Origin: an uncultured Planctomycetales bacterium
GTDB lineage: Bacteria; Omnitrophota; Gorgyraeia; Zapsychrales; Fredricksoniimonadaceae
Length of the DNA: 64,000 bases
Assembly (NCBI GenBank): GCA_964572155.1
Contig: CAZNDZ010000003.1
Span: 74,224 to 138,223, forward strand
Direction: 5' to 3'
In this document: positions 45,700-61,926 of the stretch, in pieces
Numbering within the stretch: position 1 is the stretch's first letter
How the letters are laid out: every line of letters starts with the position of its first letter
Made by a program: the position numbers and the translations under genes
Notes under the pieces: generated by a model
The model's database searches: none
Seen by the model: only the letters and a program-made list of their open reading frames with translations
What the model was told of the DNA's origin: nothing

Positions 45700-47345
45700 G
45701 CAATATCCTTACGTATCATTTCTTTGTTAGTAGGACTAAACACAGTGGCGACAAACTCGTATTCCCTGCGCGCTAACGCTGTTTTCGCCGCGACATCACT
45801 GTCACTAAGGGTTTTAAGCCTTTTTTCCAGTTCTTGCGCAGATGCACAACTTAACACAAAATCTGTCTGATTAAAACAAGGATTTATACGAAAAAGATCA
45901 TCCAAACATACATGAATGGCTAATTTACCTGCGTTGATCGCCATTAATCCAGCGCTTGTCGCATTAAACAAGGCCAAATCACAAGCATTTAAATCTTTTG
46001 TAAAATCCCCCGTGTCTTTAATAACCGCGCTAAATTCTTTGGTGATATCATCAAGCTGTTTTGCAAATAATGCGTCTGGTACACTCTTATATCCACGCAC
46101 CATATAGATTTTTTCTTTTAACAACATAGGTTCTGCCCGAAGCCACGACGAAAAAACGCGTAATTCATCCGGATGACTTAAGAATAACAACATTTTAAGC
46201 GGCGATCCAAAAGCCTTTTGATCTTGTGAATGGTTAGCTGATTTAGGACTGCCCCACACATGAACACTGCCTTGTGGTTTCTTTCCCCAGCTCTCAAAAA
46301 AATCCACGTAACGTCCACCACATACAGCATATTGACTAGGTTTAGGTGCCGCAGGTTTTACGTCATCTTTCATGGACAAGGCCAAATGATGCTGAGGGTG
46401 CGGCGTATACCCAATTGTCTTAACATTGCTTCCCTCACAAGCCATTAATAATGCGCGCTCATAACCTTTTTCTTCGTACGGATAGACAATGGTATCGATT
46501 TCTTGCGATGATAATAATTTCTTAACGGATTGATACACTGCCAACTCTTTAACAATTAAATTCTTTGTGTATTGTGTTAACAAAAACCGCGACCAAAAAG
46601 TCGGCGCATTGATGCCGCCAATGGTGCATGGCCGCTGCTTCCAAGAAGCAAAAAACATCATCATGTCCCATGACAATGATGCGTTGATGATAAAAAATTT
46701 ATCATCAACGGGCAATTGATCCAAAACAACAAAAGCCACCTTCGATGAATCCACATCATCAAACATATGGCCATAAAAATATTTGATCGTGTCTTCATTG
46801 GAATGTTTTGGGTCAAAACGTTCCGCAATGACACATGTTTTTTTGCCTTCAAGTGCTAACGTAAAAGACGAACGCTGACTTAACGCGAGTATCTGCTTTA
46901 GCCATTTGATTTTGAAGATGGTTTTTTCTTTGAGCCAAGAATATAAGACTGCAAAATTTATCGACGATGATCCTTGAAAATCAGCGAGGCAACCGATCAA
47001 ATCTTGCGGTGCATTGATGATATTAAGCTTTTGATTAGGATGCTGACGCTGCCATTCTAAAATAGCCCTCGCAAAAAATAAGGGTTTAAACTTTTCTTGA
47101 GCGCCCCAAGGCCTCACATCAAGGCGAGAAAATGGTGTTAACCACCACCAACGACTTTTAGCGCTTAAATCTTTGCTTAAAAGTGCGTGAGCTTGACTTA
47201 AATCTGAAAGCCATGCGTCGGCATTAGCTTGAACAATGGCGCGTATGTCAATATAACCCGCCTTATGGCCATCATCTTCTTGATAGCCATAATTTGCCCA
47301 CAAGGAACCATCTGTAGGTGCGCTTTTAACAAGATTTATGTTCAT
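45693..47345 (-). CDS. large soluble protein of unknown function; candidate CMP-sugar-dependent transferase (contains TPHPQHH motif)
   Basis: 550 aa with no TM segments. It lies immediately upstream of, and is translationally coupled to, the KdsB-like cytidylyltransferase. Confidence 0.4.
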   Translation of the reverse strand: MNINLVKSAPTDGSLWANYGYQEDDGHKAGYIDIRAIVQANADAWLSDLSQAHALLSKDLSAKSRWWWLTPFSRLDVRPWGAQEKFKPLFFARAILEWQRQHPNQKLNIINAPQDLIGCLADFQGSSSINFAVLYSWLKEKTIFKIKWLKQILALSQRSSFTLALEGKKTCVIAERFDPKHSNEDTIKYFYGHMFDDVDSSKVAFVVLDQLPVDDKFFIINASLSWDMMMFFASWKQRPCTIGGINAPTFWSRFLLTQYTKNLIVKELAVYQSVKKLLSSQEIDTIVYPYEEKGYERALLMACEGSNVKTIGYTPHPQHHLALSMKDDVKPAAPKPSQYAVCGGRYVDFFESWGKKPQGSVHVWGSPKSANHSQDQKAFGSPLKMLLFLSHPDELRVFSSWLRAEPMLLKEKIYMVRGYKSVPDALFAKQLDDITKEFSAVIKDTGDFTKDLNACDLALFNATSAGLMAINAGKLAIHVCLDDLFRINPCFNQTDFVLSCASAQELEKRLKTLSDSDVAAKTALARREYEFVATVFSPTNKEMIRKDIAC

Positions 47346-48103
47346 GAAGGGATTGCGCTTGTAAAAATCTTTTGAAAAAGTTTATCTTGCTTGATGATGC
47401 CTTCGGCAAAAGTCAAATCAGCAGGCGTATCAACGCTAATGCTATCCTTAGACAAGAAACCTTGAATGCTATAGCCATGTTCTAGGATGCGCATCATGTC
47501 CACACCTTCGATTTTCTCAAGCGGTGTCGGGGTCAAGGCAGCAAACTTTAATAAGAAATCTTTCTTAAATAAGTAGATGCCAATTTGTTTATAGGCATAG
47601 GCAAAATTTTCTTTGGATTGAATGGGGATGGGCAAACGAGAAAAATATAACACCCGTTGTTTCATATCCATGACGGTTTTAACCACGTCACGGGAAGCAA
47701 AAATATCCCAGTCTAAGATCGGCGCAACTAAATTAACACATGATAGCGACGGATACTTCTTCATCACCTCAATGGCTTGTTCTAAAGCCACTGGATCAAC
47801 CAACGGCTCATCCCCTTGCACATTGATGATGATATCAGCATCAACATTAGCAGCAGCCTCAGCAACACGATCAGTCCCGCGCACATGGTCAGGTGAGGTC
47901 ATGGCAACCTTTGCACCAAAATCTTGCGCAACCTTTTTAATGGCCTCATCGCAGGTGGCGATGATGACCTGATCAATATAGGTGCTTGTTTTTAATCGAC
48001 GGTAAACATGCTCGATCATGGGGTATCCGGCAATTTTTGCAATTGGCTTTCCTGGATAACGTGAAGACCCCATCCGTGCAGGAACAATACAGGCAACTTT
48101 CAT
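47342..48103 (-). CDS. KdsB-family cytidylyltransferase (CMP-Kdo synthetase-like)
   Basis: MKVACIVPARMGSSRYPGKPI...INVQGDEP. Confidence 0.8.
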   Translation of the reverse strand: MKVACIVPARMGSSRYPGKPIAKIAGYPMIEHVYRRLKTSTYIDQVIIATCDEAIKKVAQDFGAKVAMTSPDHVRGTDRVAEAAANVDADIIINVQGDEPLVDPVALEQAIEVMKKYPSLSCVNLVAPILDWDIFASRDVVKTVMDMKQRVLYFSRLPIPIQSKENFAYAYKQIGIYLFKKDFLLKFAALTPTPLEKIEGVDMMRILEHGYSIQGFLSKDSISVDTPADLTFAEGIIKQDKLFQKIFTSAIPS

Positions 48104-48118
48104 CTCTTTGACTCCTTG

Positions 48119-49060
48119 TTAAATATAATCAATTTGAAAATATTTCCACTGCTTTGGCTGTGCGCACAATAAGATTTCTTCTTTAAGTGATTTGCCAATG
48201 ATATTCGTCTGCCAGCGCTGTGTAAAACCAGAATCTTCTAACCAAGACTTGAGCGTATCACCCTCTGCTACCTGCACACGCACCTCTTGGGCATTGCTCT
48301 TATAGGCTAGATCGAAAGCCGCATCAAACAAATGCTGTTTGACCGCTTCATTCTTAATAAAAACCGATTCCAACATTTCTAGTCGACGAATGCCATCACG
48401 TAACGCCGTGATACCTGTAAAAGCATAGGCCACAATCTTGGCCTCTTCTTTAATCGTGATTAAGAAATATTGGTAGGCATGCTTGTAATAATGATGCATG
48501 CAAACATGGCTCCAAAAATTTGGCGTACGCTTAGGAAATCCACCCCATGAAATCATTTGCCGCTCAAAGAAGTCCAACATCTCAGGTTCCAAAGCTTTAA
48601 TGCCCTCGACAGATGAGTGAACGCTGTAATCCACTTCTATAGAAAATGGCGATACGGACTTTTTAAAAGATACCAGCGGACATAATGGTTTGTATCCATT
48701 TTTCATATACCACTGATAGGCACGCGTCCCTTCATCTTGACGATATGCTAAAACCGCCTCAGCTTCGGGGTAGAATTGGGCGATCTGACGATCCATCATC
48801 GCCCCAATGCCTTGTGAACGATATTCTGGTTGAACATGCGCACCTGTTACCCACACGACGGGTACATAGGCATCCATATTGATTTTAAATACGCGTGGTT
48901 CTAAGGGAATTAAACCAATCATGTCATTGCCTTCAAAGGCACAGACACCTTGGAGGTGGTTACCTTCCCAAGTTTCTTGTGTACGTGGGGTAGAATCAGA
49001 ACGGGATAATAGATCTAATGCTTGTGGGAGCAGTTCTTTGGTTAAGGCGCGGATTTGCAT
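48119..49060 (-). CDS. GNAT family N-acetyltransferase
   Basis: GNAT motif A VTGAHVQPEYRSQGIGAMM. 313 aa, possibly two acyl-CoA N-acyltransferase folds. Confidence 0.6.
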   Translation of the reverse strand: MQIRALTKELLPQALDLLSRSDSTPRTQETWEGNHLQGVCAFEGNDMIGLIPLEPRVFKINMDAYVPVVWVTGAHVQPEYRSQGIGAMMDRQIAQFYPEAEAVLAYRQDEGTRAYQWYMKNGYKPLCPLVSFKKSVSPFSIEVDYSVHSSVEGIKALEPEMLDFFERQMISWGGFPKRTPNFWSHVCMHHYYKHAYQYFLITIKEEAKIVAYAFTGITALRDGIRRLEMLESVFIKNEAVKQHLFDAAFDLAYKSNAQEVRVQVAEGDTLKSWLEDSGFTQRWQTNIIGKSLKEEILLCAQPKQWKYFQIDYI

Positions 49061-49069
49061 GTTTTATCT

Positions 49070-50149
49070 CTAAGAACGTTGGCGGTACCAAGGCTCAAAG
49101 GCATCGATAAATGCCTTCATGGCCGGTTGATGCCCAATGCTAATGCGAATGCATGATTCATATGGCGCTTCAAAGGAACCACGAATATAAATTTTCTTCT
49201 CGCGGAAAAATGCAACCGCATCTTTTGAATCTTGTGGTGTCTTTAAAAATACTAAAATGCCGTTGGTATAATCCCCACCATGGAAACGTAAACCCATGCG
49301 CTTAAATTGTTCTTGGATAAAACGCGCCCCCTCTTTGACTTCTTTGACATGGGCTTGCATGATGTCTGTATGATCCAACAAGTATTCCCCAACACCCATG
49401 GAAAACGTATTGGACTCAACGATCGAACGTGTTTTTGAGAAATACTCTATATTTTGTGGTTGGCTCACCATAAATCCTAAACGCAAACCTGCCCCACCAA
49501 ATGCTTTTGAAAATGTGCGCATGACAATCAAATTATCAAAACGATCAACCAGATCAAGCACTGTTTCAGCACCAAAATAATGATACGCCTCGTCTATGAT
49601 GACAATGATATTGCGCTGCTGGCAATATTCTAAAATCGGTAAGATTTCTGCCTTGGTCATGGCCGTTTCAATCGGCAAGTTTGGATTAGCAATCGCCACT
49701 ATGGCTGTTTTATCATCGATTAAACCATATAGACTTTGCACATCCACTTTTAAATCTTTGGTGACGCCTAAGGGCTTATATTTGAGTTGGAAAAATTCTG
49801 CATAAACCTTATACATCGGATACGTGGGATCAAGGACAATGATGTTCTCACCAGGATTTGTCATGGTTTCATAAATGAAACGCACGCCCTCGGTGATCCC
49901 GCAGGAAAGATAGATTTTCTTTACATCGATATTTAAATGTTTGGCAATCTTGCTATAAATCGTCGCTGCTTCGGGTGAAGCGCTGATCAAATATGGCGGG
50001 AATGACTTTAAAATGGCATCAAAAACAGCAGGCTCAAAATTGGAAACACGTTCATTGCGATCCAAACGCACGCCGTTGACCAAATCACGTCCGAGCGACG
50101 TTTGATAACGCACCATGTCTTGGATATGTTTCTTAAATCGCGCCTTCAT
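49070..50149 (-). CDS. PLP-dependent aminotransferase, class I/II (HisC/CobD-like subfamily)
   Basis: RTFSKAFGGAGLRLGF, with the PLP-binding Lys in the SK motif. Confidence 0.8.
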   Translation of the reverse strand: MKARFKKHIQDMVRYQTSLGRDLVNGVRLDRNERVSNFEPAVFDAILKSFPPYLISASPEAATIYSKIAKHLNIDVKKIYLSCGITEGVRFIYETMTNPGENIIVLDPTYPMYKVYAEFFQLKYKPLGVTKDLKVDVQSLYGLIDDKTAIVAIANPNLPIETAMTKAEILPILEYCQQRNIIVIIDEAYHYFGAETVLDLVDRFDNLIVMRTFSKAFGGAGLRLGFMVSQPQNIEYFSKTRSIVESNTFSMGVGEYLLDHTDIMQAHVKEVKEGARFIQEQFKRMGLRFHGGDYTNGILVFLKTPQDSKDAVAFFREKKIYIRGSFEAPYESCIRISIGHQPAMKAFIDAFEPWYRQRS

Positions 50150-50152
50150 TGT

Positions 50153-51127
50153 TTAAGCCCGTTCTTTTTTCTCGAAATGGGTCGCGTATTCTGGAAGCAA
50201 CGGCGTGACAGGTTCGTTTTGATTGTACATACAATTATTGCAAATGAGCCCCTTAAGGTCTTTGCATAAATGCTTGCGACGAAATTCCTTGTACGTATCA
50301 TTGCTCCAGATTTCTTTAAGTGAAGACTTATGCAAATCTCCGACGACCAAATCCTTGGAATAATCCAAAACACAAGCACTGACATAACCTTCCGGGGTGA
50401 TGGTAAAACCCTTGAAAGGTTGGAAACAAATCTCAACCTTACCACGTGCCCGTGGGCTGCCGGCTTCAATGTTGCCTAATTTGTTATTCTCATAAAGATT
50501 ACCACATTGATTATTAAGTGGATGTGGATCCCATTCATCAATGTAGGGTAAAACGATGTCGCGCAAAATATTCACCTCATCGATCGTGTGCTTGGTGTAA
50601 ACCATGGTCACGTAGATGCGATATTTTAAACCTGAGGTCTTGCGGTAATTAGAAATCCATTTTAAATTCTCAATGACCTTATCAAAATCATCCTTACCTT
50701 GAACAATCTTATATGTTTCGCGTTTACCCGCACTAATCGAGAATTTAATACTGTCTAAACCTGCATCTAAAACTTCTTTCGCACGCTCGGGTGTTGCTAG
50801 TGCACCGTTGGATGTCAAAAATAAATAGTTGAACCCAATCTTTTTAGCCAACGCCACATATTGACCTAAGTTTTTAACTAAGAATGATTCCCCTGTCGCA
50901 TATAAACCAATGTCACGTACGCCACAATCATAGGCTTCTTGCAAAACACGGGCGACCATTTCTGGTTCCATGGTTTTCTTATTCTTAATCAAAGGGTTGG
51001 AACAAAAGACACAAGCGTGATTGCAAAACGAGGTTAAATCTAAAAATATTTCCGTCGGAAATGGCGGCACCTCAACAAATGATGCCTGCATGCTTTTTTG
51101 CTTACGGTCTTTGATCGTTTCTACCAT
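50153..51127 (-). CDS. radical SAM enzyme with Cys-rich C-terminal (SPASM/twitch-like) region, paralog A
   Basis: CNHACVFC (C-x3-C-x2-C) after a PPFP motif. Additional cysteines at CFQPF, ACVLDY and CNNC. 324 aa. Confidence 0.85.
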   Translation of the reverse strand: MVETIKDRKQKSMQASFVEVPPFPTEIFLDLTSFCNHACVFCSNPLIKNKKTMEPEMVARVLQEAYDCGVRDIGLYATGESFLVKNLGQYVALAKKIGFNYLFLTSNGALATPERAKEVLDAGLDSIKFSISAGKRETYKIVQGKDDFDKVIENLKWISNYRKTSGLKYRIYVTMVYTKHTIDEVNILRDIVLPYIDEWDPHPLNNQCGNLYENNKLGNIEAGSPRARGKVEICFQPFKGFTITPEGYVSACVLDYSKDLVVGDLHKSSLKEIWSNDTYKEFRRKHLCKDLKGLICNNCMYNQNEPVTPLLPEYATHFEKKERA

Positions 51128-51148
51128 ATCTATCTCCCTAAAAAACTT

Positions 51149-52144
51149 TTATTTTTTACGCGCCACCACCCGCACATGCGAGCTTAAACGACTTTCTTGC
51201 AAAAACTGCTGCAAGGCATTGGATGTCCTGCCATGACGATGAAAGAACACGTACTTCCAAAATGGATCAACATTTGGCATGTCCTTCTTGGCCATAGCCC
51301 CTTTGACAATATCAACGTCCAAACGCCCTGGGGTACTTAATTCTAAAACTTCAAAACCAGCATTCTCTAATAAAGCCACAATAGCTTCCAATGATAGCAG
51401 ATTCATCCGATTTATGGGATTTAAATTTGGTGCATGTTCTTTTAAAACCTGATATTCAAAACCAGAACAAGACGCTGTTGTTAAGAAAAATAGTCCACCC
51501 TCTCTTAACTGATCATTTGCAACATGAACCAAAGCTTTTGGATCTGCGACGCGTTCTAAACCTTCAAAACACGTCACCATGTCAACTTGTGTTGATATGT
51601 TAGCACTTATAATCGCTATATTATCAGGTAATGCTTTGCTATTTTCATATAATTGCGGTTCTAACATGGCAATCTTGCCAAAAACATTCTGGGCCTGCAT
51701 GTGTTTAATCAAAAACGCATATTTGGTATGAACATCGACCCATAAAGGATTATTCGGTAAATATTCATCCGCCCATTCAATCATCCACGCAACCCGTGGG
51801 CCATAAATATAATATAAACGCTCGTCGGGTAAACTGGCCATTTCATGACGCCAGAATTGACACGCTTTAGATGCCTTATAAAAATGATCTAATGCATCTT
51901 GCGTTGGTCGAAAGGCCACGTACCATGATTCACAATCGCTACATTGATGATAAGCCATGCCTAAGCAATCTGTAAAGGCGCGGTTTTCTTTCTTTCCACA
52001 GCCTGTGCAAGGCACATTGACCAAAGGGGCTTTTAATAACATCTGTGTAATATCGACAGACAATAAGCGCACATATTGTTCGTACAAGGCATCATTGACA
52101 TTGCCTGGGACCACACCATCATTTGGGATAACAACTGTTTTCAT
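51149..52144 (-). CDS. class I SAM-dependent methyltransferase with N-terminal 4-Cys zinc-ribbon (architecture like TylCIII-type NDP-sugar C-methyltransferases)
   Basis: N-terminal CTGC...CSDC. MTase motifs FEGLERVADPKALV and LREGGLFFL are present, but motif I is degenerate. Confidence 0.5.
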   Translation of the reverse strand: MKTVVIPNDGVVPGNVNDALYEQYVRLLSVDITQMLLKAPLVNVPCTGCGKKENRAFTDCLGMAYHQCSDCESWYVAFRPTQDALDHFYKASKACQFWRHEMASLPDERLYYIYGPRVAWMIEWADEYLPNNPLWVDVHTKYAFLIKHMQAQNVFGKIAMLEPQLYENSKALPDNIAIISANISTQVDMVTCFEGLERVADPKALVHVANDQLREGGLFFLTTASCSGFEYQVLKEHAPNLNPINRMNLLSLEAIVALLENAGFEVLELSTPGRLDVDIVKGAMAKKDMPNVDPFWKYVFFHRHGRTSNALQQFLQESRLSSHVRVVARKK

Positions 52145-53175
52145 TACGCGTTCTTAGCCTCCGCCTTGCTTGTGTCTGCTGCGTAAATTTTCTCAATCAA
52201 CAGCATGGTCTGATAGGCATCTTCACTGGAGCCCACTTTGATCGGCGTATCATGCACGATGGCATCAATGAATTCTTTAAGCTCCATATCCCATGAATGA
52301 TCTTCATCGTAATAGTTGATGCTTTCTTCAGGATTAGGCAATGGATACCCTGCGGCATCATACAGGCAGCGTGCAATCTTTAAGGTCTCAACACCATAAT
52401 TTCTCGTCGATGACAATATACCTGAAATCGTGATATAACCTTTTTGCAAATACACTTCTAATGAGAACATGTACTTCCATTGAGTGGCAGATGAATGCAG
52501 CATCCCCACTTGGCCTTTTGAGTTACGCATCATCATAAAGGCATTATCTTCAACACCGGTTGGCCAATACTGCTCTGTGATAAATGATTTTACTTCATCA
52601 AACTCGCCACAAAAATATCGAAACAAATCAACCATGTGTATGCCTTGGTCAATTAAGATCCCGCCGCCGGAAACATCTTTTTGATTGCGCCAATTCTTAT
52701 CGTATTGACTGCCCCCGCCTTTGCCATAAACACCGCGCATCCATAAGACATTTCCTAAACGGCCTTTGGTCACAATAGCCTTGGCATCCAACACAGCTTG
52801 ATGATAGCGATGGTTAAAACCAAATTTTAGTTTTAGCTTGGGGTTTTTCTGCTCTGCAGCAATCATGGCTAGAACTTCTTCTTTGGTACGTCCAGGCGGC
52901 TTCTCTGAAAACACATGCACGCCTTGGTTTAAGAAGAAACACACAACCTCGGCCACAAATTTATTGGGAACACAAACAAAGACAATATCTGGCTTGTAGG
53001 TCATTAAATCTTTATAGTCTGTGACAACAGGCAAACCATCGACGGTATCTTTGTATTGCGGATCGAAGACCGCAACCAAACGCAATGATGGCTCATCCTT
53101 AACGCAAGCCGCTCGGATTTTCCCCATCTTGCCATAACCAACAACCGCTACTTTATAGATTTTGTCTAGGCTCAT
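52144..53175 (-). CDS. Gfo/Idh/MocA family NAD(P)-dependent sugar oxidoreductase
   Basis: N-terminal Rossmann KVAVVGYGKMG with a family-typical central EKP motif and C-terminal domain. Confidence 0.8.
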   Translation of the reverse strand: MSLDKIYKVAVVGYGKMGKIRAACVKDEPSLRLVAVFDPQYKDTVDGLPVVTDYKDLMTYKPDIVFVCVPNKFVAEVVCFFLNQGVHVFSEKPPGRTKEEVLAMIAAEQKNPKLKLKFGFNHRYHQAVLDAKAIVTKGRLGNVLWMRGVYGKGGGSQYDKNWRNQKDVSGGGILIDQGIHMVDLFRYFCGEFDEVKSFITEQYWPTGVEDNAFMMMRNSKGQVGMLHSSATQWKYMFSLEVYLQKGYITISGILSSTRNYGVETLKIARCLYDAAGYPLPNPEESINYYDEDHSWDMELKEFIDAIVHDTPIKVGSSEDAYQTMLLIEKIYAADTSKAEAKNA

Positions 53176-53942
53176 CTTTTCCCACGGGCAAACGCCAAAC
53201 CATTCGACGCGACTTCTTGGATAAATAGAAAATCAACGCCATAAGCAATGAAGGTATAACCTTCTTTGATGCGTTCTTTTAATAATTTCTCATCAGCACT
53301 GACAACATGAATGCCTGGAGGAATCCCTTTGGCAGCGGTTGTCTTTCTAACCTTGGCCATGGCTTCAACAACTTCTTTGTCTTTAAATTGCCCAGGCTTA
53401 TTAAGCGACCCCGATAAATCATAAGGCCCAATAATAATCGCATCAATGCCCTCGACGGCTAATATTTCATCGATATTGCGTACGGCTTCAATGTGTTCGA
53501 TTTGCACGACAATCACAGGGTTATTGGTTGCCCATGCGACATATTCCTTAAAATTTTTCCCATAGCCTTGAGCACGCGCCAAACCAACCCCACGTGTGCC
53601 TTTGGGTGGATAACGCACGGCCGCAACAGCATCACGGGCTTGGTTAGCGGTATTGATCATCGGCACAATCACCCCATGCGCGCCTGAGTCCATCGCGCGC
53701 TTGATGATCAAAGGATCATTAGCCCCCACACGCACCAAAACAGGCACGCCACACAAATCAATGGTTCGAATAAGTTCCCCACATTCGCTGACACTTAACG
53801 GCGAATGCTCCATATCTATAGCAAGCCAATCAAAACCTGACTTGGCCATTAATTCAGCGACGGTTGGGTGGCCTATCGTGATCCATGAACCGATGGCTAA
53901 TTGTTTTTTCTTTAATTTACTTTTAAGTGATGAATTCATTTT
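53172..53942 (-). CDS. HpcH/HpaI family class II (metal-dependent) pyruvate aldolase
   Basis: IDMEHSP...VRVG...D.GA.GV.VPM is the family-typical set of motifs. The start is set at the internal ATG (MNSSLKS), because the longer ORF overlaps the flippase gene. Confidence 0.7.
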   Translation of the reverse strand, partial: KMNSSLKSKLKKKQLAIGSWITIGHPTVAELMAKSGFDWLAIDMEHSPLSVSECGELIRTIDLCGVPVLVRVGANDPLIIKRAMDSGAHGVIVPMINTANQARDAVAAVRYPPKGTRGVGLARAQGYGKNFKEYVAWATNNPVIVVQIEHIEAVRNIDEILAVEGIDAIIIGPYDLSGSLNKPGQFKDKEVVEAMAKVRKTTAAKGIPPGIHVVSADEKLLKERIKEGYTFIAYGVDFLFIQEVASNGLAFARGKR

Positions 53943-55393
53943 TTTCCTCTTTGCAAGAACTCCAGATTTAAGAACGGCGCAATAAGGGATAATTTTAATC
54001 CCATTAGCCCATAAAGACAAATAAGAATTATTTTAATCAGTAAACTTATAAACAATGGAACGTTCATGACCGATACGTTCCACGCCACAATGCTTGCGAT
54101 AATAAATGCCATGAAAATGGCCGCGATCTTCAAATGCGGCCACAAAATACGATAAAAATGTTGGGCTACCAAACATGTTAAAGTGGTCATGATAATCCCT
54201 GTCACAAGTGTTGCGTAGGCCGCACCCAAGGATGCCCAATGCTTGATAAAGAAAATGCTCATGACAATATTAACGCCATACGTTACTAACAATAAACCCG
54301 AGGTGATATATGTTTTTTTCAAATAAATCAACTGCATGCTGCCAATCTTTGAAAAAAACAACACCACATAATAGGCGCTAAAAATCATGACCACATAATT
54401 AACCCCAGCGTAACTCTTTGGTAAAACAATTCCCATGATTTCCTGACAAAACAATACCAAGAGCAATGCCCCGCCGGTGGCTGCGTAAAAAAATGGTGCT
54501 AAGTATTCCCCTATTTCCTTCTGGGCTTTCTTTGGGTCATCAAACATCTGCTGATAGGCATGCGGTTGAAAGACGTTTTCTAGCGCATTCTCAAAGGCAA
54601 AAACCAAATACCCAATCTTTTGCCCGATGCTATAAATCCCTACCCCTCCAAGCGATCCCAAGATATTAATCAAATACCGGTCAATGCGCGTGCTAAATAC
54701 ACCTAAGAAAATGCGCGGGGTTAAGGGCAAGGAGATCGCCCATGCTTCTTTAAGCGCTACCCAACTAAAATGAAAAGGACATTCTCTATGAATTTGAATC
54801 AATAAAACAATGCTTAAAATAAACAGCGATACAAATTTAGACAATAAGATCCCCGTCACGGACCAATGAAATCCCAAAAGAAATAGAAGTGACAAACCTA
54901 AATATAAACCGCAATTCATAAGCGAGAACTTTAAATACACGCTTGGTCTTTTGCTATTACGATAAAATGCTAGGAATAAATCAAACACCGATGCAAAAAA
55001 AGTGCCGCATAAATCAAGGGTTAATACCTTTGTTTGCCCAGGGATTCGAAATAGAAACTGTGCAATGGCCTCTCCCCAGAAAATCGTACACATCAGCAAG
55101 ATGATGAAGTTAAAACACACAAAGGCCAGAATCGAATAAATCAATTGTGATAAACGCACTTGATCTTTGGCGTACGCAAAAAAGTTGCGGTCAAAGGCAA
55201 TGCTGCTGCCTAAGAAAGCTATGCCAGCCACGAAGACCGCATAAATTTCAGACAAAGCCAAGATACCAAAGTCTTCTTTTGTGAGAACCCGAGCGAAAAT
55301 GGGCAATGTCAACACAGGCACTGCCGTTGTAAATACCACGGCTAATGTGTAGGCCGATGAGCTTTTTAATTGCTGTGTAAATAACTTACCCAT
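53936..55393 (-). CDS. Wzx-type polysaccharide flippase (MOP superfamily)
   Basis: 485 aa with about 12-14 TM helices and the typical N-terminus of polysaccharide-biosynthesis exporters. Confidence 0.7.
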   Translation of the reverse strand: MGKLFTQQLKSSSAYTLAVVFTTAVPVLTLPIFARVLTKEDFGILALSEIYAVFVAGIAFLGSSIAFDRNFFAYAKDQVRLSQLIYSILAFVCFNFIILLMCTIFWGEAIAQFLFRIPGQTKVLTLDLCGTFFASVFDLFLAFYRNSKRPSVYLKFSLMNCGLYLGLSLLFLLGFHWSVTGILLSKFVSLFILSIVLLIQIHRECPFHFSWVALKEAWAISLPLTPRIFLGVFSTRIDRYLINILGSLGGVGIYSIGQKIGYLVFAFENALENVFQPHAYQQMFDDPKKAQKEIGEYLAPFFYAATGGALLLVLFCQEIMGIVLPKSYAGVNYVVMIFSAYYVVLFFSKIGSMQLIYLKKTYITSGLLLVTYGVNIVMSIFFIKHWASLGAAYATLVTGIIMTTLTCLVAQHFYRILWPHLKIAAIFMAFIIASIVAWNVSVMNVPLFISLLIKIILICLYGLMGLKLSLIAPFLNLEFLQRGKK

Positions 55394-57347
55394 GGGCTAA
55401 TTGCTCCTTAAAACGCAACATGGCCTGCCCGTCTAAGTAAGCATCAACCTTGCCTTTTATATATGTATCTAAATATTGATCAAAGGCTTGATCAGACATT
55501 GCTAGTAATGCATCAATCCTTCGCGTCAGATCGTCGTACCCATGCACCACAAGCCCTGGGATCTGATCATAATCAATGCCCTGATGCTTATGACCCGACT
55601 CATACCAAAAAGCTTTTTTGCGGGCGCTTAACGCTTCTGCCGTCGGAGATGACATGCAATGGGTGATGACCACATCGCTAGCTGCAATGATGCGGTTATT
55701 AAAAGAAAAATCAACAAAGCTTTTTGCGGTTAACTCTTGGCTAATGGGCCAATACACCCTGGGATTATCCTTGATCTTCTTCCACAAACTTAAAATGGCC
55801 TCTCCTTTTTCCGGGGCCGCCGCTGGGTGGTCTGGATGACAATAGAAAGTTGGACTCTTAGATGGTTTAAAAACAAAAATATGCTTAGGATATGCGTCTA
55901 TCAATCTCAACATATCTTGATAAAAGGCTAAACAGTCGTCGAAATTTGTCCAACACGCATCCGCATTGATAAATGTCGTATCAAAAATAACAATCAATTT
56001 GCGTTGATCCACATCTGAAATCTTAGGGAAGCATTCCTGTCGGATCACAAGCGCTTGCGACTTCTTATCCATGATCATTTGTCCATATAATGAACCAATG
56101 GCTTGATAATTGCTGACATTTTGATGATGCATCTTATAATACGCAATGACATCCTGATTAAATCCAACAAAATGATCATACGATAAGAATGACCAAATAA
56201 CATTGCGCACCGAACGAACATCGTTATCTTTGGCAATGAAATACGTACCCCCCAGAAAACATGAATAATTCCACGATGTCTTTTGCTGTGTTCTCAAAAA
56301 TAAACATATAGCAGAAACTTGAATATTTTCCTGATTAGTAAAAACCAAATTCTTAAAATTAATGCGCTGTAATATCAGTCTCCAGTCACAAAATTTCTGC
56401 ATGGCAATAAAATATACCCGCCACATGGATGATGGCTCTTGAAATGAAAAACATGTTTCTAAAAGACTCTTAAAAATTGCGCCAAAGAATGACATGTCCC
56501 ATTGAGCTTTTGCTAAAGAACCCACACCATGGTCTTTTTTAATTCGATAGAAGAAATACCCTTTACTAGATTCACGTTCAATTAGTTGGTCTGATAAACC
56601 GCTGTGATCTATGAAGGCCGTATTAGATGGATGAAAGCATTTCCCATCCATCAGAAAGTCATACCCTCTATCCCCACTGCGCTCAACTTCAAGACGGGAA
56701 CCAATAAAGACGGCATGATCGAATGACGTCTTTAAAACCTTAGGCTTAAACGTCACAGCACCCAGAAAACACCCTAAAAATCGTAAGCCTACAAAAGCCA
56801 AGGCAAAGTTCTTATAACCTTCTTTACGAATAAATTCTTTGAAACTAAGCCATGGATCGTCATGAACAACAATATTGTTAGGTAATGCAGCATCATGGGC
56901 AATCGTGTCATATAAGAACTTATGCCAATAGCTAAAACGATTACTGTAAAACACGATCTTGGATTGAGGATGAATCTTGGCGAGATGCGTTAAATGATCG
57001 ACAATATAACAGAATTTAAAGATGTCTTCCGCCAGACCTCGACGAAAAAGAAAGGAAACATCTGGTACGCCATACAATGCTGCTGTTGATTTATAAACCG
57101 CAGTGCCCTCAATGTAAGGCAGCAAGCGATTCGCCAAATCAATGGCCTGCCCTTGGGCCTTGCTTAAGCCATCAATAAAAATACGCTCTAATTGTCCACT
57201 ATCTACAAAACCACGCAGGTGTTTCTTAGTCTTAACTTGAAAGTCCCAATCAAAAACCGACGGAACAACACCCTGCTTTACATAATTTTTAAAGATGGCA
57301 AAATTACTCGACGATATGTCTTCAAAAATAACAAGGTCATGGCTCAT
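55386..57347 (-). CDS. large soluble protein of unknown function; candidate transferase for the activated sugar (HP-containing motif FYCHPDHP)
   Basis: 653 aa with no TM segments. Its C-terminal ~250 aa loosely resembles TagF/capsule-synthesis-type transferases. Confidence 0.4.
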   Translation of the reverse strand: MSHDLVIFEDISSSNFAIFKNYVKQGVVPSVFDWDFQVKTKKHLRGFVDSGQLERIFIDGLSKAQGQAIDLANRLLPYIEGTAVYKSTAALYGVPDVSFLFRRGLAEDIFKFCYIVDHLTHLAKIHPQSKIVFYSNRFSYWHKFLYDTIAHDAALPNNIVVHDDPWLSFKEFIRKEGYKNFALAFVGLRFLGCFLGAVTFKPKVLKTSFDHAVFIGSRLEVERSGDRGYDFLMDGKCFHPSNTAFIDHSGLSDQLIERESSKGYFFYRIKKDHGVGSLAKAQWDMSFFGAIFKSLLETCFSFQEPSSMWRVYFIAMQKFCDWRLILQRINFKNLVFTNQENIQVSAICLFLRTQQKTSWNYSCFLGGTYFIAKDNDVRSVRNVIWSFLSYDHFVGFNQDVIAYYKMHHQNVSNYQAIGSLYGQMIMDKKSQALVIRQECFPKISDVDQRKLIVIFDTTFINADACWTNFDDCLAFYQDMLRLIDAYPKHIFVFKPSKSPTFYCHPDHPAAAPEKGEAILSLWKKIKDNPRVYWPISQELTAKSFVDFSFNNRIIAASDVVITHCMSSPTAEALSARKKAFWYESGHKHQGIDYDQIPGLVVHGYDDLTRRIDALLAMSDQAFDQYLDTYIKGKVDAYLDGQAMLRFKEQLAHG

Positions 57348-58363
57348 ATTTTGCGGTGGAAACTATTTGGATCAAAAACTACAGCCAAATCCTTATTGAG
57401 TGGTTCAATGGCATCGTTCTTATTCTTCCAACAATTGCCACACAAAGTTCCTTCTAATTTTCCTGTTAAATGCATTTTACGTAACTGGGCAACGGCATGA
57501 GAATTCCACGCTTCTTTAAGGCCAGTGACATTTAAATCTGCAGTCGCTACATAATTCTGATAATCAACGCAACACGACGTCATATAGCCTTCGGCCGTGA
57601 CATAAAAACGGTTAAAGGGCAGATTACAAATACCCTCGTGATTTTTACCTTTGGTAGGGTTCAATGCTTTCATATAGGACGCTTGGTCGCCTTGCTCAAA
57701 GAAAACCACTTCATCAACCCAAGATTCAATCATTGCCTTGAAAGATTCTTTCTCATGACGATTAAGATCCGTCACCACATAGGTTACAAATAAATATAAT
57801 GGCCTACCTAAAGTTTTGCGCACTTCTGAAAGATGTTTTAAATTCTTAAGCACTAACTCGAAATCATCTTTGCGGTGTGTTGCTAAATATGTTTCACGGC
57901 TACCGGAATTGATCGAAAACTTAATTGAATCAATCCCAGCATCCAAGATTTCTTTGACTTTCTGTGGAGTTGCTAAGGCGCCATTGCTTGAAATATATAC
58001 ATACCGATACCCCATGGCCTTTGCCTCTTTGATCAATAGCCCTAGTTCTTTATACATCAACGACTCTCCCGTCGTATAAAGACCTAATTCATCGGTCCCA
58101 AGCGCCCTTGCTTCCTTCATAACTTTCAAGATAAATGACGGGTCAATCACGCGTTTCCGTCGTGTCATGTGCGGATTCGTACAAAAAACACAGGCGTGAT
58201 TACAAGCATTGGTTACCTCCACTTCCATGGTGCGTGGAAATGGTGGATGCTCCGTATAAAAATTATTCTTTTGATTATATTCATACTGCTCTTTAGCACG
58301 CTGGCTTAATTTACCCACGGTGGTTCTCCTTATCATCTTGAAGCGATTTGATATACCCTTCAT
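57344..58363 (-). CDS. radical SAM enzyme with Cys-rich C-terminal region, paralog B
   Basis: HPPFP...VEVTNACNHACVFCTNP parallels paralog A. C-terminal cysteines at CNLPF, SCCVDY and CGNC. It overlaps the upstream cytidylyltransferase gene by 26-53 nt. Confidence 0.85.
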   Translation of the reverse strand: MKGISNRFKMIRRTTVGKLSQRAKEQYEYNQKNNFYTEHPPFPRTMEVEVTNACNHACVFCTNPHMTRRKRVIDPSFILKVMKEARALGTDELGLYTTGESLMYKELGLLIKEAKAMGYRYVYISSNGALATPQKVKEILDAGIDSIKFSINSGSRETYLATHRKDDFELVLKNLKHLSEVRKTLGRPLYLFVTYVVTDLNRHEKESFKAMIESWVDEVVFFEQGDQASYMKALNPTKGKNHEGICNLPFNRFYVTAEGYMTSCCVDYQNYVATADLNVTGLKEAWNSHAVAQLRKMHLTGKLEGTLCGNCWKNKNDAIEPLNKDLAVVFDPNSFHRKI

Positions 58364-59078
58364 TGCGGCGAATATGTTGATTGATACGCCCTAACTGAGG
58401 CTGTTGTTCTAAGAATGCTAAGATGTCATTCATGCCAAAAAAATGGTTCTTGTTATATAGCGCCTTATATATCGCTTGTATCAGCGCATAGTCTTCGGCA
58501 TTATCTAATGTCCAACGATGCTGCCCATAATCAACAGCACTTGTCACACTGGTCAATTTAAAAATCTCAGGGTGCTGTTTCAAATATGGCGTCACGTGCT
58601 CCCTTTGAGAGGGAAGCGTTGCGCTCTGCCATGCTTTTTCTAACGCATCAAATGTCATCACTTCCACATCTTCCCCATCAGGATATGTTTCTTTTATAGT
58701 ATTTGATGTGTAGTCTGACTCTGTCTTTAAATGCACCTCAATCACATGATCAATGACCGATGCATCCATCAAAGGGCAATCTGCTGTGATTCTAACCACG
58801 TGTGTTGGTCGAAATTGCTTCGCGGTCTGATAATAACGGTCTAACACATCTGTTTGTGAGCCGCGCGTGCATACAATGCCTTTTGCTGTGCACAATTCAA
58901 GCACGACATCATCATCATCCTGCTGTGTTGTCGCCACAATCACACGGTTAACCTTCTGGCTTTGAGCAACGCGCTCAACCACACGCTCAAGTACCGTTGC
59001 ACCTTCTAAATCCAAGAGCACTTTACCCGGCAATCGTGTTGCGTTCATCCTAGCTTGAATGATGGCAATGATCATCAA
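58311..59078 (-). CDS. acylneuraminate cytidylyltransferase family protein (NeuA/PseF/SpsF-like CMP-sugar synthetase)
   Basis: IIQARMNATRLPGKVL and ITADCPL. Confidence 0.75.
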   Translation of the reverse strand: MMIIAIIQARMNATRLPGKVLLDLEGATVLERVVERVAQSQKVNRVIVATTQQDDDDVVLELCTAKGIVCTRGSQTDVLDRYYQTAKQFRPTHVVRITADCPLMDASVIDHVIEVHLKTESDYTSNTIKETYPDGEDVEVMTFDALEKAWQSATLPSQREHVTPYLKQHPEIFKLTSVTSAVDYGQHRWTLDNAEDYALIQAIYKALYNKNHFFGMNDILAFLEQQPQLGRINQHIRRNEGYIKSLQDDKENHRG

Positions 59079-61009
59079 TACCAGCCCGTCGCTGACAATG
59101 TAGCTAATGAATAAAGGTTTGTAAAATCTCGCCCTTTGGCTTCTTTACCAGCAAGATAATCATCTACCAAACGATCTAAATATTTTATATCAAAATGCGA
59201 CGGGGCTAAGATATTGCGGTAAGCCCGTTGGCTTAAAACTTCTTTAAAATGAACGCTAATTCCAGAGCGGTACGTAATCTCAGCTAAAATAGAAAATCCT
59301 TCAATCGTATCATACAAATACGAATGAGGCCCCTCTTGCAATAACTTATAAGGGAATTTGATTTTGTTTTCTGCGACCCATTTTAAAGGATATTTTACAT
59401 GATTAAAATCTAAGCCACGACCCCAGCTTTCAGGTGCTTGGGACAAGAAATCAACCAAACGTTGATCGTGGAATGGCGAACGCCATTGATGGCCATTAAA
59501 CTCCAAGCAATGCTTGATCAAATTTACCGTCGATCCTTGTGAATGCATCGAATGATATAAATGACAAAACCATGCATACATGGTCTTTTCATTAAATGAT
59601 TTGGATAAATTGGGATATAGGTCTCTTAATAAATACTGCGACAACTTTCCTTGAGTCGATGACGTAAAGACAGGATTGCCCAAGGTCTTCGCAAAAGGAA
59701 TCCGTGGGGAACCATAAAACAACGGCAGTAAATAACTTTCTAACCGTTCTTGGTCACTGCCCCATTTATCCTGAAAGGCAACGCCTTCTAACATCTTTAA
59801 AAAGATTTGATATACCTTATCTTTCCCCTCAACTCCACGTTTAACCTTTTCATAAAACGAAGGGCCATACAAATAACAATTCATCTTATCGCCATACTCG
59901 GTGAAAGATTTTTGCGAATGAAAGAACGTGCAAAACTGTGAAAATCCAAAATTATGAAATGAATCGGACGTCTCTCCATTAAAGACCAATTGACCTGGTG
60001 TTGATGCTTCGGTGATACCATCCGACAATCTAGAAAAGTTAAAACCTGTAAAGCTATACATATGTTTAGAGCGCAACTTAGGTGCAACGGCTTTCCAATA
60101 CGCAATGGAACCCTTGCTTTTTAAATTCCAATCCACAATGGTTGGCTTTAAGCCATAAAACTCCCCGATTTTCTTAACCTTATTAATTTCATACGCATTA
60201 ATTTTGCCTGTTTTCTCTGAATATAACATGCTCCCCGTCGACATTTCAATGCGCTTCGAACCATACATATCAACAAGTAAACCCAATATAATAGAAGAAT
60301 CCCAACCACTTGAACTTGAAATCCATATCTTTCCTTTCACATGCTGGCTTCGCGCATGGATAGATTCTTTCAAGATCTTGTAATAATCTTCCAAATTACT
60401 TTGGTCGTATTGCTTAATCTCTCTGGGCTTGAACTGCGCAACCTTGGATGTTAAACCTTTGCTTGATAGTGTTAAAATTTCGCCCACTTTGATTTGCAAA
60501 ACATTTTTATAAATTGTTGTCCCTTTGGGCGTATACCAACCATACACCGAAAAGAAATGGGACAACATCAATTGGTCATGCACAGGTTTGACATGCGAAA
60601 ATATAAAATCTAGATTTGTTGATAGGCAAAATAAATCCTCGCTATGTGCATAAAAAGAATCTACCCTCGAATATACGTCGGTAAAAATCTCAACGCTTTG
60701 TTTTGCCTGCTGCACCACAAACCCAATGTATTGTCCTTCTAAGACTTCAATAACTTCCTTCAATGGCGCTTTAGTAAAAATCTTTTTTAAAGCCTCTTGT
60801 GGATTAGCACTTAACAACAATGCTTTCTCACCTTGACGGATATAAAACACATCGCCATACAAATAAACAACACGACCATCGGATAATTTCAAGGTGTGTG
60901 TGGCTGCGCTTGTGTTTAAATAACAGGTCCCTGCGGCACCTAAATCAACGACGGGTGTTAAGCCTTTTGCCTTACTGTGGTCTGACGTCTTTAAAAACTC
61001 TAATTCCAT
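59075..61009 (-). CDS. asparagine synthetase B-like protein (PP-loop ATP pyrophosphatase domain, glutaminase-domain Cys absent); candidate sugar-acid amidotransferase
   Basis: PP-loop ISSSSGWDSS (SGGxDSS). 644 aa. The N-terminus is MELEF rather than MCG. Confidence 0.6.
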   Translation of the reverse strand: MELEFLKTSDHSKAKGLTPVVDLGAAGTCYLNTSAATHTLKLSDGRVVYLYGDVFYIRQGEKALLLSANPQEALKKIFTKAPLKEVIEVLEGQYIGFVVQQAKQSVEIFTDVYSRVDSFYAHSEDLFCLSTNLDFIFSHVKPVHDQLMLSHFFSVYGWYTPKGTTIYKNVLQIKVGEILTLSSKGLTSKVAQFKPREIKQYDQSNLEDYYKILKESIHARSQHVKGKIWISSSSGWDSSIILGLLVDMYGSKRIEMSTGSMLYSEKTGKINAYEINKVKKIGEFYGLKPTIVDWNLKSKGSIAYWKAVAPKLRSKHMYSFTGFNFSRLSDGITEASTPGQLVFNGETSDSFHNFGFSQFCTFFHSQKSFTEYGDKMNCYLYGPSFYEKVKRGVEGKDKVYQIFLKMLEGVAFQDKWGSDQERLESYLLPLFYGSPRIPFAKTLGNPVFTSSTQGKLSQYLLRDLYPNLSKSFNEKTMYAWFCHLYHSMHSQGSTVNLIKHCLEFNGHQWRSPFHDQRLVDFLSQAPESWGRGLDFNHVKYPLKWVAENKIKFPYKLLQEGPHSYLYDTIEGFSILAEITYRSGISVHFKEVLSQRAYRNILAPSHFDIKYLDRLVDDYLAGKEAKGRDFTNLYSLATLSATGWY

Positions 61010-61032: not shown

Positions 61033-61926
61033 TTATTTTGGCCACAACGCAACATTCAACAAATCTTCTTTCAAGAATGCAAACTCCGCTTCAATGCGGT
61101 GAAAGATATTGATATTCGACGGGGCCTGTTGCCACAATGCAACATTCTCCATCACCTGATGTTTCGACTCAGCTCCAAAAATAATATAAGCCTCTGGCCA
61201 TTTCCATTGAACATACGCTAAACACAACGCTTTTCTAGAAAGTCCTGATTCATTGGCGTATTGCTCAAGCTTCGTAACAATTTCACGTGCCATGGGAATA
61301 CGCACGGGGATCTTTTCAATTTCCATGAGGAGTAAACCTTGTAAGAAAATACTGCGCACATACACCCGCTTATTCAAACGTTTCGCTAACGCAAACACAC
61401 CAACTGCTTCAAAGCGACGATCTAAAATATTAGACGGACATTGCACAAAATCGATGTCAGGATTATTTAAAGCCTCCATGGCTTTAGACGGTGCATAAAC
61501 AGAAACTCCCAATCTTTTTACCCTACCATCATTTACCAATCCTCTTAAAGCAGCCCCTAGGCCATCGTGCCATCTGCTTAATAGGTTTTCATCATGCAAC
61601 ATGAGCCCATCAATGCATGATATATTAAGATCCATCAAAGACCGATCGACCGACGCTGTGACATTAGATAGATCATTGATATCTAGTTTAGGATCAAGCT
61701 TTGTCATAACATCAACACGCTCACTCAACCCCAATCGCATCAATGCATCACCCAGAACCTGTTCGCTGTCACCATAACCTTGAGCAGTATCAAAATCTTT
61801 GATACCACTAACCCATGCAGCACGGATAATATCATCCACTGCATCTTGAGACGGTTTTCCTAAGACATTATTAATGCCATAAGCTAATCCTAATTGTGCC
61901 GTTCCAAGAACAAGATGATCAGTCAT
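61033..61926 (-). CDS. aldo/keto reductase
   Basis: The N-terminal GTAQLGLAYG signature. 297 aa. Confidence 0.8.
   Translation of the reverse strand: MTDHLVLGTAQLGLAYGINNVLGKPSQDAVDDIIRAAWVSGIKDFDTAQGYGDSEQVLGDALMRLGLSERVDVMTKLDPKLDINDLSNVTASVDRSLMDLNISCIDGLMLHDENLLSRWHDGLGAALRGLVNDGRVKRLGVSVYAPSKAMEALNNPDIDFVQCPSNILDRRFEAVGVFALAKRLNKRVYVRSIFLQGLLLMEIEKIPVRIPMAREIVTKLEQYANESGLSRKALCLAYVQWKWPEAYIIFGAESKHQVMENVALWQQAPSNINIFHRIEAEFAFLKEDLLNVALWPK

Follow-up and report, generated by a model that had tools for sequence, protein, structure and literature searches.

Two radical-SAM proteins with twitch-type tails beside cytidylyltransferases in an Omnitrophota surface-glycan locus: possible tailoring enzymes of CMP-linked building blocks

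What do radical S-adenosylmethionine (SAM) proteins do in a bacterial surface-glycan locus? The question is raised by a 64,000-nucleotide stretch of DNA (the window) from an uncultured bacterium deposited as Planctomycetales and placed by GTDB in the Omnitrophota (assembly GCA_964572155.1, contig CAZNDZ010000003.1, positions 74,224 to 138,223), in which two genes for paralogous radical-SAM proteins, here called rSAM_A and rSAM_B, lie in a long, tightly packed minus-strand array. That a glycan locus contains generic radical SAM/SPASM genes is in itself no surprise. To our knowledge, however, carbohydrate-acting radical-SAM enzymes are few and almost all from antibiotic pathways, and we know of none that acts on sialic-acid-like sugars, on sugars of the 3-deoxy-D-manno-oct-2-ulosonic acid (Kdo) type, or on the cytidine monophosphate (CMP) forms of either. 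The explanation that we find best, held tentatively and at a little short of an even chance, is that both proteins belong to an uncharacterised family of twitch radical-SAM enzymes that tailors cytidylyl-activated (CMP-linked) surface building blocks, rSAM_A in a BtrN-like manner and rSAM_B in a comparable step. The proposal builds on family membership, the pattern of cysteine ligands, operon packing, conservation of partner genes and gene fusions; from these we infer the substrates, their CMP-linked state and the type of reaction. The two genes are as follows (the clades are defined below).

50153-51127, minus strand: rSAM_A, twitch-type radical-SAM protein of clade A, 324 amino acids (Pfam Radical_SAM and SPASM)
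57344-58363, minus strand: rSAM_B, twitch-type radical-SAM protein of clade B, 339 amino acids, or 324 from the probable GTG start at 58318 (Pfam Radical_SAM and SPASM)

That the two reading frames encode paralogous radical-SAM proteins, as an initial annotation made from the letters of the window had it, was borne out. The proteins are 38% identical over about 305 residues (E 1e-80), are recognised by two Pfam models, Radical_SAM (at E 1e-21 and 1e-24) and SPASM (at E 4e-15 and 8e-9), and both carry the CX3CX2C motif of the radical SAM superfamily (PF04055). They also share the N-terminal signature described in that annotation, but its wording had to be amended: the spacing T-x-C fails, and the correct form, one residue longer, is PPFP-x7-T-x2-CNHACVFC-[ST]-NP. 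Family-wide, only P24, C35, N36, H37, C39, F41 and C42 of this signature are kept. Translation of rSAM_B probably begins at the GTG at 58318 and not, as in the longer frame, at the ATG at 58363, because AAGGAG lies 7 nucleotides (nt) upstream of the GTG, the N-termini of homologues match it, and the public call (P0121) has 324 amino acids.

The C-terminal cysteine clusters attributed to the two proteins are indeed present (C234, C252, C296 and C299 in rSAM_A; C246, C264/C265, C308 and C311 in rSAM_B). We aligned both proteins with 22 homologues taken from both homologue searches (24 members). The invariant cysteines were C35, C39 and C42, which bind the SAM cluster, and only four others, C234, C252, C296 and C299 (rSAM_A numbering); C208 and C288 of rSAM_A are not conserved. 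The arrangement C234-x12-G-x4-C252 plus C296-x2-C299 in rSAM_A, and C246...C264 plus C308-x2-C311 in rSAM_B, is that of a twitch domain. The CX2CX5CX3C motif of the seven-cysteine SPASM domain occurs in neither protein, and the Pfam SPASM model matches anyway because it also covers the twitch half. Thus, of the 'SPASM/twitch-like' tail proposed initially, the twitch part stands and the full SPASM part does not. NF033640, the model for N-terminal-twitch radical SAM proteins, scored 58.1 and 37.6 bits (cut-off 170) and aligned, over model positions 3-74, only with the C-terminal twitch segment of the window proteins. A B12-binding domain, one of the subtypes that the annotation had listed, was matched by neither protein in Pfam, which sets both apart from class B methylases such as GenK and Fom3.

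The best sequence match to both proteins in the PDB was BtrN (E 5e-13 for rSAM_A and 1e-9 for rSAM_B), with the core and the C-terminal segment both aligned and all four auxiliary-cluster cysteines of each window protein paired with BtrN cysteines (PDB 4M7T/4M7S). BtrN is a twitch enzyme that has a single auxiliary cluster ligated by four cysteines and oxidises an alcohol to a ketone (PMC10337720). As judged from these alignments, the tail of the window proteins is consistent with a twitch domain like that of BtrN, in which four cysteines ligate a single auxiliary [4Fe-4S] cluster. The two proteins are nevertheless not BtrN orthologues: identity is about 21%, they have 324 amino acids against about 250 for BtrN, and BtrN (2-deoxy-scyllo-inosamine dehydrogenase) is encoded in an aminoglycoside cluster, whereas here the context is a surface-glycan locus with CMP-transferases, that is, polysaccharide and CMP-sugar rather than aminocyclitol.

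The direct neighbours of the two genes are the following.

49070-50149, minus strand: HisC-like class I/II aminotransferase (Pfam Aminotran_1_2), the conserved downstream partner of clade A
51149-52144, minus strand: methyltransferase with an N-terminal CxxC...CxxC zinc-ribbon-like segment (Pfam Methyltransf_23)
55386-57347, minus strand: PFTS-motif polysaccharide biosynthesis protein, 653 amino acids (TIGR04417 61 bits, below the cut-off of 100; precomputed annotation PF27878 PFTS_polysacc)
58311-59078, minus strand: CTPt_B, SpsF-type CTP_transf_3 cytidylyltransferase (Pfam CTP_transf_3 E 9e-37; homologues named SpsF by their sources)

As annotated, both radical-SAM genes are packed tightly between sugar genes. 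The methyltransferase gene ends 21 nt before rSAM_A, and the aminotransferase gene follows 3 nt after it; rSAM_B, which is translationally coupled to CTPt_B, overlaps it upstream by 8 nt and the PFTS gene downstream by 4 nt. Neighbouring genes here either overlap or are separated by at most 23 nt. A promoter and terminator scan found no intergenic terminator, which is consistent with one long operon and otherwise uninformative. The array is part of a surface-glycan locus that begins at about 23 kb and reaches the window's end; besides many sugar-modifying enzymes, it encodes glycosyltransferases, Wzy-like and Wzx-like proteins and a Bac_transf initiating transferase.

We analysed how widely the family occurs and in what company. 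Homologues at E ≤1e-10 numbered 978 with rSAM_A as the query and 629 with rSAM_B, nearly all of them metagenomic and bearing generic names only. A pattern scan of 185,579 species genomes returned 365 relatives, so that the family is found in at least 365 species-level genomes. For 80 of the 365 we retrieved the loci (numbered with the prefix L), and a neighbour-joining tree of their radical-SAM proteins, combined with clustering of the neighbours, gave four groups. Clade A includes rSAM_A; clade B joins rSAM_B with sequences from Thalassospira, Magnetospirillum and Rhodospirillales; the large clade C comes from gut and rumen anaerobes and from Campylobacter; and clade D comprises Clostridium beijerinckii, Acetobacterium wieringae and a metagenome-assembled genome (MAG) of Bacteroides fragilis, in loci with NeuB, NeuC and CTP_transf_3 and often flagellin. 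The carriers of the family also include a MAG of Campylobacter sp. and many uncultured lineages. In all 80 genomes the homologues lie among polysaccharide, nonulosonic-acid, flagellin or phosphonate genes, with partners specific to each clade; this neighbourhood comparison, which the initial annotation had called for, agrees with its view of a sugar-locus rather than a peptide-maturation setting. In the literature, a radical-SAM gene has been noted beside rhamnose genes on a Brachyspira plasmid (PMC4267127).

These data bear on the possibility that the two proteins are peptide or cofactor maturases (enzymes of the anSME, PqqE or tungsten-cofactor type, or acting on peptides that ribosomes make and that are modified after translation, RiPPs) that merely happen to be located in a glycan locus, which we consider very improbable. 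Neither protein reached any curated NCBIfam model, and all maturase scores were far below their cut-offs (at best 85.7 bits against 380). As the annotation had stated, no peptide substrate gene accompanies either protein: there is no free-standing small gene at 49.0-59.5 kb, where every open reading frame of at least 20 amino acids lies inside or overlaps a long gene, which together with the short gaps leaves no place for a stand-alone precursor peptide gene. The stretch before the CX3CX2C motif is just 34-53 residues long, Pfam shows no further domain, no RiPP recognition element or other leader-recognition domain is present, and the auxiliary cysteines number only four. The glycan or phosphonate context of every locus examined argues in the same direction.

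A clue to what rSAM_A does comes from its partners. Of the 18 non-redundant loci of clade A, which represent Omnitrophota, Planctomycetota, Bdellovibrionota, Alphaproteobacteria, Campylobacterales and Flavobacteriaceae, 17 have a HisC-like aminotransferase gene directly downstream of the radical-SAM gene, on the same strand and within 185 nt. The aminotransferase of the window scored 213.8 bits with TIGR01141 hisC, below the cut-off of 276, and its best PDB matches are histidinol-phosphate aminotransferases. The minimal clade-A set (L022-L025 and L029) consists of an HpcH aldolase, a KdsB-like cytidylyltransferase, a 2-hydroxyacid dehydrogenase resembling phosphoglycerate dehydrogenase (PGDH), the radical-SAM protein and the aminotransferase. 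Larger versions, that of the window among them, add a GFO/IDH/MocA oxidoreductase, the zinc-ribbon methyltransferase (directly upstream of the rSAM_A homologue in L001, L010, L011 and L013-L015), a GNAT-like protein, a protein of 550-590 amino acids of unassigned family, an FkbM methyltransferase, a GmhA-like isomerase and a phosphatase of the inositol-monophosphatase (IMPase) family. In the window the remaining genes of this module are as follows.

40812-41579, minus strand: IMPase-family phosphatase (Pfam Inositol_P E 3e-52), present in six clade-A loci
41557-42447, minus strand: PGDH-like D-2-hydroxyacid dehydrogenase (Pfam 2-Hacid_dh_C; TIGR01327 below cut-off), part of the minimal clade-A cassette
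42453-43070, minus strand: GmhA-like SIS sugar-phosphate isomerase (Pfam SIS_2; TIGR00441 gmhA below cut-off), found in some clade-A loci
43793-44869, minus strand: NanM-like putative sugar O-methyltransferase (TIGR04371 101.8 bits, passing the cut-off of 44)
44869-45699, minus strand: FkbM-family methyltransferase (Pfam Methyltransf_21), conserved across clade-A loci
45693-47345, minus strand: conserved 550-amino-acid protein of unassigned family, candidate transferase, with homologues after CTPt_A in nine clade-A loci
47342-48103, minus strand: CTPt_A, KdsB-type CMP-ulosonate cytidylyltransferase, conserved in clade-A loci; it passes the NCBIfam KdsB cut-offs (NF009905 285.7 bits against 255; TIGR00466 kdsB 171.5 bits against 155.2)
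48119-49060, minus strand: GNAT-like acyltransferase, 313 amino acids (weak Pfam Acetyltransf_1), directly after the aminotransferase in 12 clade-A loci
52144-53175, minus strand: GFO/IDH/MocA NAD(P) oxidoreductase (Pfam matches), in most but not all clade-A loci
53172-53939, minus strand: HpcH/HpaI-family class II pyruvate aldolase, 255 amino acids in the public call (Pfam HpcH_HpaI E 1e-41; TIGR02311 201 bits, below cut-off), member of the minimal clade-A cassette

The isomerase, phosphatase, pyruvate aldolase and KdsB-type enzyme would be the set needed for a non-canonical route that forms a 3-deoxy-2-ulosonic acid and activates it, and the cassette most likely makes an amino- and methyl-decorated acid of this kind, of the Kdo type. 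In our proposal the 5'-deoxyadenosyl radical generated by rSAM_A would take the carbinol hydrogen from a hydroxyl of the ulosonic acid, possibly as its CMP conjugate, and the auxiliary cluster would accept the second electron, giving a ketone or an aldehyde. The HisC-like aminotransferase would then turn this product into an amine, which the GNAT-like enzyme may N-acylate; the position of the GNAT gene after that of the aminotransferase suggests that the amine is kept. We favour an oxidation of the BtrN type because of the four-cysteine twitch pattern, the strict pairing of radical-SAM and aminotransferase genes, and the GNAT gene that follows the pair. In the butirosin pathway the ketone formed by BtrN is likewise transaminated, and in both cases a small enzyme would stand next to an aminotransferase step and act on a polyhydroxylated substrate; the butirosin aminotransferase is of the DegT type, whereas the partner in the window is HisC-like (class I/II). 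The same logic is known from the Shewanella KdnB/KdnA route to 8-amino-Kdo (Kdo8N), where a hydroxyl of a Kdo-type sugar is oxidised and transaminated before activation by a KdsB-type enzyme; there the oxidase belongs to the metal-dependent alcohol dehydrogenase family and is not a radical-SAM enzyme.

The order of the two steps could also be the reverse, as in DesI/DesII: the aminotransferase would first install an amine beside a hydroxyl, and rSAM_A would remove it by radical deamination or redox-neutral elimination, so that the pair would form a deoxygenation module. This appears improbable to us, since the GNAT-like gene that directly follows the aminotransferase gene in the 12 loci is expected if the amine is retained and N-acylated, and since an auxiliary cluster with four cysteines is the hallmark of oxidising twitch enzymes such as BtrN, whereas DesII is not known to carry one. 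DesII, BlsE (cytosylglucuronate decarboxylase) and SpeY showed no specific sequence relationship to the window proteins (E 1e-3 or weaker, or absent), and their gene contexts differ from the window.

Do the two proteins act on the same sugar? The initial annotation took them for a locally duplicated pair that performs two successive radical steps on one unusual sugar. They do lie in one tight same-strand array, 6 kb apart, and have the N-terminal signature in common. However, rSAM_A and rSAM_B are, judging from the sequences, old paralogues and not a recent local duplication, because they are only 38% identical, fall into separate clades of the neighbour-joining tree and have their own conserved partners, and because the most closely related locus, whose rSAM_A is 90% identical, contains the complete A module and no B module. 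Within 10 kb, clades A and B come together in none of the 80 fetched loci except L004 and L006, which are other assemblies of the same sequence. Moreover, each gene in the window is accompanied by its own cytidylyltransferase, and CTPt_A and CTPt_B share only 26% identity and differ in subtype (KdsB and SpsF, respectively). We therefore regard a duplicated pair working on one sugar as quite improbable, and this part of the annotation falls away together with the full SPASM domain; the reading of the two as sugar-acting enzymes, which draws on the twitch tail, the BtrN match and the glycan context, is retained. For rSAM_B, only the general statement is justified that it probably carries out a comparable radical tailoring of a second, SpsF-activated sugar of the nonulosonic-acid type.

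Several radical-SAM genes per glycan locus are a repeated theme, while the combination of A and B seen in the window is not. The same nonulosonic-acid loci repeatedly contain a second radical SAM/SPASM gene that is much more distant, at 22-28% identity (L007:12742-13746, L078:11885-12877, L067:12129-12968, L027:19530-20651 and L021:5352-6449). In the closest relative locus (L001:1-619), a gene for a B12-binding radical-SAM protein lies upstream together with one for a DUF4346 pterin-binding protein, as does a three-domain CTP_transf_3-NeuB-SAF fusion.

The initial annotation had left out what is the strongest clue, the link to cytidylyltransferases, which is seen across all clades and includes gene fusions. 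It is most informative in clade C, a sister clade of the window proteins. There, 39 non-redundant loci encode a fusion of a cytidylyltransferase with phosphoenolpyruvate (PEP) mutase, most of them also phosphonopyruvate decarboxylase, and mostly lack a 2-aminoethylphosphonate (AEP) transaminase. A cytidylyltransferase domain of the PF01467 type is fused to the C-terminus of the radical-SAM protein in 22 of the 39 and encoded by a separate gene directly downstream in 13 (35 of 39 in total; L042:9881-11380, L028:9564-11144, L055:9608-11359, L080:9950-11451 and 31 further loci). The clade-C radical-SAM protein and its PF01467 partner look like an undescribed step in the biosynthesis of cell-surface phosphonates. 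A gene labelled "radical SAM" has been reported to adjoin ppm-ppd in Campylobacter, among unclassified clusters (PMC8942020), but fusions of the clade-C type are described neither in that inventory of phosphonate clusters nor in the paper on nucleotidyl activation (PMC6697681).

A precedent for such a link exists in fosfomycin biosynthesis, where the cytidylyltransferase domain of Fom1 makes the CMP conjugate of 2-hydroxyethylphosphonate (2-HEP-CMP; PMC6697681) and the radical-SAM enzyme Fom3 acts on the CMP conjugate (PMC8158854). The likeness lies in a conjugate made by a cytidylyltransferase serving as substrate of a radical-SAM enzyme, and in the fusion of the sister clade to the same type of domain, PF01467. 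The differences are that Fom3 is a cobalamin-dependent class B methylase, whereas the window proteins have a twitch domain and no B12 domain, and that no PEP mutase is encoded in the window. The window proteins are most like BtrN in architecture and most like Fom1/Fom3 in pathway logic, and are members of neither family.

A second fusion that combines the same activities is TIGR04321 ("spiro-SPASM"), in which a CTP_transf_3 domain is joined to a radical SAM/SPASM protein. CTPt_B aligns to positions 20-227 of this model, rSAM_B to 221-379 and rSAM_A to 441-502, so that, from these alignments, the adjacent genes of the window look like a split version of the fusion. They are separate genes, however, and score 43.1 (CTPt_B), 40.1 (rSAM_B) and 46.1 (rSAM_A) bits against a cut-off of 250, which places them outside the family. 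TIGR04321 itself is uncharacterised, and our literature searches found no paper on it. The two independent fusions (to PF01467 and of the TIGR04321 type), together with the adjacency in the window, speak for a coupling between the radical reaction and cytidylyl activation.

In clade B the loci are of the nonulosonic-acid type, with SpsF-like or other CTP_transf_3 genes, DegT aminotransferases, WbuX/WbuZ amidotransferase fusions, and pairs of an aldo/keto reductase with a class III aminotransferase; in L068 a PFTS protein (119 bits) directly follows the clade-B radical-SAM protein. In clade D, the capsule locus of the B. fragilis MAG has a CTP_transf_3 gene nearby. Among the best 120 of more than 7,900 matches to the SpsF-type protein we found no fusion to a radical-SAM domain.

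Several observations weigh against the proposal that these enzymes tailor CMP-linked building blocks, with rSAM_A as a BtrN-like oxidase. The link between clade B and SpsF-type genes is looser: they share a locus, but are adjacent in this window only, and SpsF-type genes, with their more than 7,900 matches, are far more numerous than these radical-SAM genes. The sister clade usually lacks an aminotransferase, and clades B, C and D have no such pairing of radical-SAM and aminotransferase genes, so that oxidation feeding transamination cannot be what the whole family does. An aminotransferase of the HisC type normally works beside a phosphate ester, which may hint at a phosphorylated substrate instead of a sugar acid. 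Reaction types cannot be told apart by the fold, and no member of the family has been studied, our literature searches having found no publication on it. Finally, the GFO/IDH/MocA oxidoreductase of most clade-A loci could supply the keto group, freeing rSAM_A for another job.

That job could be some other radical chemistry on the sugar acid, such as epimerisation of an unactivated carbon, with an unusual stereoisomer of an ulosonic or nonulosonic acid as the product, a decarboxylation as by BlsE, or carbon-carbon chemistry, with the aminotransferase using a keto group made by the GFO-type or the 2-hydroxyacid dehydrogenase. We consider this unlikely, though a good deal less so than the DesI/DesII order. 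The near-universal adjacency of radical-SAM and aminotransferase genes in clade A is hard to explain without a shared intermediate, and L021-L025 and L029, which have no GFO gene within 10 kb, keep the pair nonetheless.

BtrN-like oxidation by rSAM_A may be one instance of something wider. It is possible, though we are doubtful, that these twitch radical-SAM enzymes form a new functional class that recognises its substrates by their CMP handle and tailors them independently of O2, these being Kdo-type ulosonic acids in clade A, nonulosonic acids in clades B and D, and phosphonates in clade C. If so, rSAM_A and its HisC-like aminotransferase would make amino-ulosonic acids by an anaerobic route, and the family would provide the first radical-SAM enzymes with a demonstrated action on CMP-sugars. 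This would explain how anaerobes install amino groups and other modifications on their surface acidic sugars without O2, would assign a function to the fusion protein of unclassified phosphonate gene clusters, and would give a rule for predicting the substrate, which is to look for the cytidylyltransferase that serves as partner. The products are of biological interest, since immune recognition and the attachment of phages are shaped by ulosonic acids and phosphonates at the surface.

In several Firmicutes, flagellin genes lie beside clusters of radical-SAM genes with phosphonate or nonulosonic-acid genes (L080:14570-15676; also L083, L089, L027 and L064), which suggests that flagellin glycans carry the products.

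The module around rSAM_A contains four methyltransferase genes (class I, NanM-like, FkbM-like and zinc-ribbon type; 43072-45699 and 51149-52144), from which a heavily methylated sugar would be predicted. The 550-amino-acid protein at 45693-47345 has invariant YEEKGxE, SHPxE and TSAG motifs; it matched nothing in Pfam, NCBIfam or PDB profile searches, and a single-sequence structure model was unusable (predicted local distance difference test, pLDDT, 38). From its position, it may represent a new family of transferases for the CMP-activated sugar. The 653-amino-acid PFTS protein, which is also encoded near a cytidylyltransferase, likewise gave nothing in a PDB profile search, and we rejected the idea that the two are relatives (BLASTP E > 7; hhalign probability 1%).

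Roughly the first third of the window (1-22500) is occupied by housekeeping genes, namely those for sigma-70 (rpoD), DNA primase (dnaG), SMC, an enoyl reductase, a GlgC-like nucleotidyltransferase and an SBP_bac_5 binding protein. They share their strand with the glycan locus, which is thus chromosomal. The remaining genes around the two radical-SAM genes are the following.

53936-55393, minus strand: Wzx-like polysaccharide flippase (Pfam Polysacc_synt_3)
59075-61009, minus strand: 644-amino-acid protein, weakly asparagine-synthase-like (TIGR01536 and TIGR03104 at E about 1e-4 only; no Pfam match)
61033-61926, minus strand: aldo/keto reductase (Pfam Aldo_ket_red)
61931-63247, minus strand: class III aminotransferase (Aminotran_3 from precomputed annotation)

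The aldo/keto reductase and the class III aminotransferase travel with SpsF-type genes, and homologues of both are found near the clade-B radical-SAM genes of L067 and L078. The gene for the 644-amino-acid protein lies just upstream of the SpsF-type gene, and a homologue with 29% identity is encoded in a Kiloniella locus (L020).

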